Below, piece after piece: positions 15,860 through 15,929 of a stretch of DNA of 64,000 bases. The stretch is taken from IMG/VR virus record IMGVR_UViG_3300027906_002394, positions 1 through 64,000 of that record. One strand, given 5' to 3'. A program made the position numbers and the translations under genes. Numbering within the stretch: position 1 is the first letter of the stretch; each line of letters opens with the position of its first letter. Source of the stretch: a virus. The notes under the pieces are model-generated. The model was not told where the DNA came from. It did not search any database and worked only from the letters and a program-made list of their open reading frames with translations.

Positions 15860-15929
15860 GCGGTGGACGGTATTCGTACAATCCGTTTCCAACGGACAAG
15901 GTTTGGTGAAACTCCAAGACGCCGCTCCA
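15860..15929 (+). tRNA. Atypical tRNA-Gly (anticodon UCC)
   Basis: Acceptor GCGGTG/CGCCGC, U discriminator plus encoded CCA, anticodon loop TTTCCAA on TCCG/CGGA, T-stem TTTGG/CCAAG with TGAAACT loop, mini D-arm GTA-TTCG-TAC. Confidence 0.7.

Follow-up and report, generated by a model that had tools for sequence, protein, structure and literature searches.

A tRNA-Gly-derived cloverleaf at 15860-15929

The window analyzed here is a 64,000-nucleotide stretch of viral DNA, the first 64 kb of the 82,960-b IMG/VR virus record IMGVR_UViG_3300027906_002394 (G000), which is about 50% complete and belongs to a marine T4-like myovirus. It carries on its plus strand a 70-nt RNA gene derived from tRNA-Gly, hereafter called the element, with the following parts:

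15860-15929, plus strand: tRNA-Gly-derived 70-nt cloverleaf, recognized by sequence, fold, and covariation
15860-15865 with 15920-15925, plus strand: acceptor stem
15867-15877, plus strand: D arm
15881-15897, plus strand: anticodon arm, with the anticodon UCC at 15888-15890
15902-15918, plus strand: T arm, with the T loop UGAAACU at 15907-15913
15926-15929, plus strand: discriminator U and CCA

The acceptor stem consists of six pairs (G1-C, C2-G, G3-C, G4-C, U5·G, and G6-C), followed by a mismatch of G7 opposite A66 and an A at position 8. The anticodon stem contributes 4 bp and an A·C mismatch beneath a 7-nt loop, UUUCCAA, which has U33 and a purine at position 37. Five base pairs form the T stem, and an encoded CCA follows the discriminator U. 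A canonical tRNA elbow joins G18 and G19 of the D loop with U54, U55, and C56 of the T loop; these nucleotides are missing here, where the D loop reads GUAUU and the T loop UGAAACU, and the greater part of the D arm is gone as well. Bacterial glycyl-tRNA synthetase (GlyRS) recognizes an identity set of G1-C72, C2-G71, G3-C70, U73, C35, and C36, every nucleotide of which is present in the element. The original prediction, made from the letters of the window, had pointed out the Gly identity elements, the G7-A66 mismatch, A8, the 4-bp anticodon stem, the aberrant T loop, and the encoded CCA, and all of these are as described. It was also right about a 3-bp D stem but not about its register, a GUA/UAC helix with a UUCG loop, as covariation favors ACG/CGU with a 5-nt loop.

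Standard tRNA finders, suggested earlier as a check, do not report the element. ARAGORN in bacterial mode makes no call at the site, even with 80% thresholds. The Rfam tRNA model (RF00005) gives no match at its gathering score, nor at E ≤ 10 on 15700-16300, and at E ≤ 1 it leaves the element copy uncalled in all five records searched. In metazoan-mitochondrial mode ARAGORN returns mtRNA-Gly(tcc) at exactly 15860-15929, but because this mode makes 14 calls in the window and 6-13 in five shuffles, the call alone is no better than chance. The minimum free energy structure of the single sequence is the cloverleaf, with an ordinary energy (z = -0.46; 61 of 200 shuffles fold equally well). Two other identities were considered and discarded. 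The tRNA-like domain of a transfer-messenger RNA (tmRNA) was rejected, the element being a self-contained cloverleaf with its own anticodon arm and the tmRNA of the phage having its place at 47325-47665, and a T-box-like or tmRNA-like role for the element together with the RNA downstream was dropped in view of the missing Rfam match, downstream indels that are not multiples of three, and a cloverleaf that is complete alone.

The reduced fold recurs and covaries in related phages

A search pattern derived from the 3′ half of the element retrieves four viral contigs that share with the window its promoter, its 70-mer, and the 255 nt behind. A looser pattern yields 20 further viral loci, 16 of which match the covariance model R1 at 42-55 bits (L025, L026, L030, and L033 were dropped for want of an R1 match), as well as 80 metagenome loci, 22 of them matching R1. 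Viral and metagenome loci combined amount to 15 distinct full-length element sequences. In these patterns the T loop and the acceptor 3′ strand are prescribed and the anticodon loop is free. A scan of genomes gave 51 stretches, six with R1 matches at E ≤ 0.1; the best of these (L042, 27.5 bits, in a metagenome-assembled Thiohalocapsa genome) is doubtful and lies inside a 512-aa open reading frame (ORF) in 74% GC DNA, and the other five look like chance. Searches of GenBank phages by blastn and tblastn with the region and with the upstream 369-aa ORF found no match, and no related loci were found with that ORF as the query.

The loci differ in their genomic surroundings. In group A, the lineage of the window, the element has its own promoter and is followed by the 255-nt RNA, a lipoprotein-like ORF, an HTH_39 ORF, and a terminator; the arrangement of promoter, 70-mer, and downstream RNA is kept in all five group A records. 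In group B1 (L022/L018/L036) it is part of a tRNA array in which a canonical tRNA-Gly(GCC) follows after 5 nt, and it is therefore not that phage’s only glycine tRNA. In group B2 it stands alone ahead of a terminator. Group C copies have their own promoter and terminator and lie directly behind a 445-aa DUF4338/DruA ORF. Group D (L035/L163) retains the T arm and acceptor end, with an anticodon-like loop that lacks CC. In groups B, C, and D no 255-nt RNA follows the element. Since the element alone recurs across these contexts, it is the conserved unit, not the downstream RNA. Neighboring genes show no partner shared across lineages (HD_4, DUF932, HNH, cytochrome c peroxidase, peptide deformylase, peptidase, and CobS-like genes were seen), and each related record holds exactly one copy of the element.

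The stems are maintained by compensatory change. Among the three distinct group A sequences, 96.5% of cells are paired and five pairs change on both sides, a level reached by none of 500 shuffles, and slid controls reach 33-44% paired. In the alignment A4, which comprises 13 distinct sequences of three lineages, pairing reaches 96.0% of cells and both partners have changed in 13 of the 19 pairs; slid controls, with partners shifted by 1-3 columns, pair in 40-49% of cells. A4 was fitted to the model, which biases it towards the structure. Group D, L042, and L130 (which contains N) were left out of A4 and of the model R2. Covariation backs a D stem of A8-U18, C9-G17, and G10-C16 with the loop GUAUU (all three pairs covary, 100% paired), whereas the alternative GUA/UAC stem with its UUCG loop is 88% paired and has one covarying pair. 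D loops of the relatives read GAAU, GUUAU, and GGAU. Conservation in related phages, proposed earlier as a check, is thus seen in a stripped-down fold that recurs and covaries, the T loop being constant by pattern design.

The anticodon loop, which the patterns do not fix, shows a divided conservation. U33, C35, and C36 are retained in 14 of the 15 distinct sequences. Position 34 is U in groups A and B2, G in B1, and A in B1 and C, and it differs even between near-identical group B sequences. In groups B and C the loop reads GUNCCCC, with G32, C37, and C38, so that no purine occupies position 37 there. Within the acceptor stem, 5-68 is the sole pair to vary (AU, UA, UG). Position 7/66 (A4 columns 7 and 60) is G·A in groups A, B1, and C, and G·U, A-U, or U-A in a few group B sequences; a conserved purine-purine mismatch at the junction of acceptor and T stems may be a recognition feature.

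The element is transcribed behind a consensus promoter

Two promoter-like features precede the element:

15806-15834, plus strand: sigma70-type promoter TTGACA-17-TATAAT, 12/12 matches, invariant in all five group A copies
15846-15853, plus strand: TATAAATA motif, ending 6 nt before G1, invariant in the five copies

We take TATAAATA to match the T4-type late-promoter motif, which would start transcription at about G1. Marine metatranscriptome contigs from four studies run from 15843 or 15874 through approximately 16760-16796, thus spanning the unit between promoter and predicted terminator; these are assembled contigs, whose ends and levels give only hints. One of them begins at 15843, 9 nt past the -10 box, and those of three studies end at 16759, 16772, and 16796. 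No RNA contigs lie on the flanks at 15448-15771 and 16825-17200, an absence at contig level. Because contigs of three studies span position 15929, an unprocessed precursor exists. The element is conserved, its stems covary, and it is transcribed; it is therefore a real, functional RNA gene.

A series of forms links the element to canonical phage tRNA-Gly

A pattern that constrains the acceptor ends only uncovers longer relatives in two cultured Pelagibacter phages:

91140-91213 of HTVC008M (KC465899.1, L223): 74-nt tRNA-Gly(ACC)-like gene, in an unannotated gap between CobS and the S21 gene
7779-7852 of Mosig (MT647606.1, L220), minus strand: 74-nt tRNA-Gly(ACC)-like gene

Both have the anticodon ACC, a D loop without GG, and the T loops AGCGUUA and GGCAGUA, respectively. 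They share with the element the same acceptor end, C35, C36, and the lack of both the T-loop UUC and the D-loop GG, and differ from it in a D arm of normal length, the anticodon ACC, and other T loops. Their phages are T4-like marine Kyanoviridae in which a DUF4338 gene lies 4-6.5 kb off. ARAGORN calls the HTVC008M form as an ordinary tRNA-Gly but not the Mosig form. Neither site bears an RNA feature in GenBank, and that of HTVC008M has no annotation at all. In Mosig, an annotated 31-aa hypothetical coding sequence, Mosig_000011 (record positions 7774-7869), overlies the 74-nt RNA and is probably a mis-annotation.

The canonical phage tRNA-Gly genes, namely the tRNA-Gly(GCC) of L022/L018/L036 and the tRNA-Gly(UCC) of Synechococcus phage S-SCSM2R, have in common with the element the GCGG...CCGC-U-CCA end, C35, C36, and the cloverleaf. 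They differ from it in their D stem of 4 bp with GG and in a T arm that reads GGTTCAAAYCC, and both ARAGORN and Rfam call them. Aligned with them, the non-canonical genes form a series from canonical through 74-nt to 69-70-nt forms, and the element is probably a diverged duplicate of a canonical phage tRNA-Gly gene. Over 14 named phages R2 found no match, under stricter filters and without a positive control; a repeat with a positive control recovered G004 and found Mosig. A first-look screen gave 0-1 candidates per named record and 50 for G004, which makes absences in named phages weak.

A possible glycyl carrier outside translation

We propose, with a probability of roughly 0.4, that the element acts as a private carrier of glycyl groups, averse to translation, which supplies a phage GNAT-type transferase. 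It would be transcribed strongly from the early sigma70-type promoter and probably also from the late promoter starting at G1. Host GlyRS would charge it, EF-Tu and the ribosome would use it poorly, and the glycine would be handed to a phage GNAT-fold aminoacyl-transferase. Candidate acceptor enzymes are a Mom-family enzyme in the window lineage and a DUF4338/DruA-type GNAT in sister lineages. Of this scheme, the data show the fold, its conservation, its transcription, and the presence of such enzymes in element-bearing relatives; charging, avoidance of translation, and the choice of acceptor enzyme are inferred. The broader version, that marine T4-like phages encode private, non-decoding, miniaturized tRNA-Gly genes whose products are charged by host GlyRS and solely feed glycine to phage GNATs (Mom- or DUF4338-type) modifying DNA or another macromolecule, is more tentative still.

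Glycine identity without a decoding constraint is suggested because U33, C35, and C36 are kept while position 34 drifts, and because groups B and C carry G32, C37, and C38. The ACC anticodons and non-UUC T loops of the HTVC008M and Mosig forms, and the canonical tRNA-Gly beside the element in B1, count in its favor as well. What is preserved corresponds to the set read by GlyRS, and what is lost or drifting (the elbow, position 34, and, in sister lineages, positions 32, 37, and 38) to the parts that the ribosome and EF-Tu use. A glycyl donor for non-ribosomal chemistry was among the roles originally proposed, and it remains the best-supported reading, although not through the GNAT of the window that had been put forward for it. 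That protein (24186-24764), the only GNAT in the window, is a generic Acetyltransf_1 8 kb away in a sugar/radical-SAM island.

The closest parallel comes from staphylococci, where non-proteogenic (NP) tRNA-Gly molecules have TGC or TGT in place of the T-loop TTC, bind EF-Tu weakly, and feed Fem transferases, as described in the accessible text of PMC7826273. NP1-NP3 of S. aureus and S. epidermidis share with the element a G for U at T-loop position 55 (TGC/TGT there, TGA here), with a difference at position 56, and a sequence divergence located in the D and T arms, where the identity determinants of NP1-NP3 lie. The proposed logic would likewise be common to both, a Gly-tRNA pool kept from EF-Tu for the benefit of a transferase; NP1-NP3 are charged by GlyRS, as is proposed for the element. 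In contrast, the D arm of NP1-NP3 is of full size and these tRNAs supply the Fem transferases of cell-wall synthesis, whereas the element is encoded by a phage and its D stem comprises 3 bp around a loop of 4-5 nt; no match to FemAB (PF02388) is found in its record G000 at E ≤ 0.1. According to the same part of PMC7826273, the NP lineage occurs only in staphylococci. The element may thus work like an NP tRNA but, judged by this comparison, is no member of the staphylococcal lineage.

Candidate acceptor enzymes

Mom of phage Mu provides a precedent for a phage GNAT that takes glycine from tRNA-Gly: it moves glycine from Gly-tRNAGly to adenine N6 in DNA and does not accept Gly-tRNAAla, as the available part of PMC13219725 (Silva et al. 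2026) reports. Unlike in our proposal, Mu uses host tRNA-Gly of any isoacceptor, and no private tRNA is mentioned in that part of PMC13219725. Mom-family (PF25680) genes occur at 198-202 bits in G001, G002, and G004, that is, in all three relatives that cover the syntenic region; by synteny, the corresponding site would be situated about 39-40 kb to the left of the first base of G000. With E = 8.8e-24, the protein of G004 can be aligned to Mu Mom (PDB 8bv8); of the residues important or essential for Mu Mom activity it keeps H58, Y59, S124, D149, and Y159 but not R111 and R151 (Mu numbering as chain number + 9, inferred from H58/Y59).

DUF4338 is termed a GNAT domain in the text seen of PMC10853773. 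DUF4338 genes are found in G001, G004, G005, G007, G009 (two copies), G013-G016, HTVC008M (two copies), and Mosig, and in all five group C records tested the element is immediately preceded by a DruA/DUF4338 ORF. Six of seven element-bearing records that are at least 80% complete or complete genomes carry such a gene, the exception being group D. Across phages the domain is present in 31 of 50,697 records, 25 of these from Synechococcus phages. The AlphaFold model of the 370-aa DUF4338 protein is poor (predicted local distance difference test score, pLDDT, 61.5), and Foldseek returns nothing for it at E ≤ 0.001; its weak top rows are nearly all GNAT acetyltransferases, with Mom 8bv8 not among them. 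Neither result was counted as evidence. The link of the element to Mom and DUF4338 enzymes is no more than suggestive.

Several observations weigh against a private glycyl carrier. Neither a Mom nor a DUF4338 gene is present on the 82,960-b record of the window, and Mom is also absent from the G003 fragment; in G002 and G004 Mom lies about 53-55 kb from the element, so the connection runs through relatives only. In the group A Mom-like protein, K replaces R111 and I replaces R151; in Mu Mom, according to the accessible portion of PMC13219725, R111K drastically reduces activity and R151A is dead. The same source reports that Mu Mom takes all three E. coli tRNA-Gly isoacceptors, so that the enzyme can do without a private donor. 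None of 12 records of groups B, C, and D, two of them at least 90% complete, contains Mom, and group D (100% complete) has neither Mom nor DUF4338. Conversely, S-SSM7 carries both genes and no element was found in it by pattern or R2, and the non-canonical element was not found in seven of nine DUF4338-positive named phages, nor in any of five DUF4338-negative cyanophages. A profile comparison by hhalign gives no link between DUF4338 and Mom (probability 0.5%). Because the search patterns fixed the T loop and 3′ acceptor strand, their constancy across groups is by construction. Finally, the anticodon loop of the window, UUUCCAA, is fully ordinary for a decoding tRNA-Gly(UCC).

Alternative roles

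This last point opens the way, for group A, to a working, oddly built decoding tRNA-Gly(UCC), by which the phage would bring a glycine tRNA of its own to translation and whose reduced D arm and elbow are tolerated as in mitochondrial tRNAs, a possibility that we regard as real but doubtful. Such a role would suit U33, the UCC triplet, and the purine at 37 in the window, the tRNA neighborhood (a tRNA-Arg(UCU) upstream in G004, the tRNA array of B1), the ordinary tRNA-Gly call for the HTVC008M form, and the fact that G004, 91% complete, has no other tRNA-Gly. It is harder to reconcile with a position 34 that varies between A, G, and U among near-identical relatives and is A in group C, HTVC008M, and Mosig, with G32, C37, and C38 in groups B and C, and with a canonical tRNA-Gly next door in B1. 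A pyrimidine at position 37 is rare in decoding tRNAs. The G18G19/UUC elbow, missing here, is used by the ribosome and by many tRNA enzymes.

A decoy against host anticodon nucleases, also among the functions originally suggested, is conceivable. In a variant of it, plausible from the literature but improbable, the element would act as a decoy or an escape isoacceptor when host toxins attack the acceptor end of tRNA-Gly, by toxSAS pyrophosphorylation of CCA or GNAT acetylation of Gly-tRNAGly, with an abundant minimal RNA soaking up the toxin or staying usable. Toxins that select tRNA-Gly by its acceptor stem do exist; FaRel2 is described as picking it by acceptor pairs 1, 2, 4, and 5, and AtaT2 as specifically acetylating Gly-tRNAGly (the latter in the text available of PMC7470980). 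Pairs 1-4, U73, and CCA are kept in the element while the rest drifts, pair 5-68 varying within the acceptor, the promoter has consensus strength, and a gene for a polynucleotide kinase-phosphatase domain lies 4 kb upstream. The 3′ acceptor-strand conservation, however, is partly built into the searches, and C35 and C36, superfluous for toxins that read the acceptor, are kept in 14 of 15 distinct sequences. We know of no such toxin for the presumed hosts. Phage tRNAs that evade tRNA-targeting defenses (PARIS, retron; PMC11559606) are likewise phage-encoded variants, differing from those of the host at the sites that the toxins read. Unlike the element, they are functional decoding tRNAs of normal architecture, and the accessible part of PMC11559606 describes no tRNA-Gly or stripped-down case.

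Very unlikely, in our view, is a tRNA-like processing or stabilizing module, at which RNase P and 3′ trimming would set the 5′ end of the 255-nt RNA and of the lipoprotein/HTH mRNA. Co-transcription with the downstream RNA, seen in the contigs of three studies that bridge 15929, and the arrangement in all five group A records agree with it. Outside the window lineage, however, the element is followed by a terminator of its own instead of such an RNA (B2 and C) or by a tRNA (B1), and a mere handle would not need the conserved U33-N-C35-C36 loop. The release of a downstream RNA, one of the originally suggested functions, thus finds no support as a core function, as it is only in the window lineage that the 255-nt RNA comes after the element.

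A decaying, functionless tRNA-Gly pseudogene, as had been envisaged in case this copy was simply decaying, would explain the failure of ARAGORN and Rfam and the unremarkable single-sequence fold energy, but it is ruled out for practical purposes by expression, compensatory change in 13 of 19 pairs across lineages, the invariant promoter, and one copy per genome in several lineages.

Implications of a proposed private carrier RNA

NP tRNA-Gly is known from staphylococci; a phage-borne, miniaturized version, possibly tied to tRNA-dependent GNATs, is new. A literature search found no paper describing such phage RNAs, the supplementary tRNA tables of PMC9004378 and the homolog lists of PMC13219725 being outside its reach. 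If the glycyl-carrier reading is true, a non-proteogenic tRNA would be known from a virus for the first time, as the second system of this kind beside the cell-wall tRNAs of staphylococci, and the virus would bring an amino-acid carrier RNA of its own for reactions other than translation. A tRNA-dependent DNA-modifying enzyme could then act late in infection without competition from ribosomes. The family is missed by standard tRNA finders and is un- or mis-annotated even in cultured Pelagibacter phages; because those finders do not see it, phage tRNA censuses and tRNA-based host prediction miss it as well. It also illustrates the extent to which a tRNA can shrink with its GlyRS identity nucleotides retained, which is relevant to minimal tRNA design, and it is of interest for what GlyRS, EF-Tu, and GNAT transferases each read.

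Neighboring features and phage background

Downstream of the element, the unit contains the following features:

15930-16183, plus strand: structured non-coding RNA of 255 nt, co-transcribed behind the element, conserved in the window lineage only
16184-16345, plus strand: 53-aa ORF, first coding gene of the unit, conserved downstream in L002, L003, and L005
16460-16750, plus strand: 96-aa winged-helix protein (HTH_39, E = 6.3e-8), with a homolog in L002
16788-16814, plus strand: intrinsic-terminator-like hairpin of 12 pairs followed by a T run, the likely end of the unit

The 255-nt RNA has no Rfam match. Its group A alignment shows a variable hairpin with indels of 19 and 6 nt, which argue against a reading frame there, and its consensus fold has 50 pairs, two of them compensatory, with a 3′ hairpin just ahead of the ribosome-binding site of the small ORF. 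The 53-aa ORF has neither a Pfam nor a PHROG match; judged by eye, it looks lipoprotein-like, with a cysteine after a hydrophobic stretch.

Upstream, the most complete relative has a canonical tRNA-Arg(UCU) about 85 nt ahead of the element promoter (L005 4903-4979; G004 144761-144834), which is absent there in the window. A 145-aa ORF at 11302-11739 on the plus strand, 4 kb upstream of the element, encodes only the phosphatase domain of a polynucleotide kinase-phosphatase (PF25109, E = 2.4e-27) of the RNA/tRNA-repair type. The early region also contains ORFs with a NUMOD3 motif (homing-endonuclease type) and a staphylococcal-nuclease domain, at 6078-6611 and 8525-8890 on the plus strand.

The island that contains the generic GNAT extends over 22789-43458, all on the plus strand, and encodes fatty-acid-desaturase-like, Asp/Asn hydroxylase-like, and UDP-glucose dehydrogenase-like proteins besides the GNAT at 24186-24764, together with at least three radical-SAM proteins (26080-30447) and a Nol-like carbamoyltransferase (42043-43458). 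The RNase H homolog of the phage is 45% identical to those of Synechococcus myophages. A permuted two-piece tmRNA gene lies at 47325-47665 on the plus strand, with the tag peptide AEDNTAYEDYALAA and Rfam scores of 113.9 bits (tmRNA_permuted) and 90.8 bits (alpha_tmRNA); a permuted tmRNA is reported for the pelagimyophage/Melnitz group in the portion of PMC9004378 that was available.

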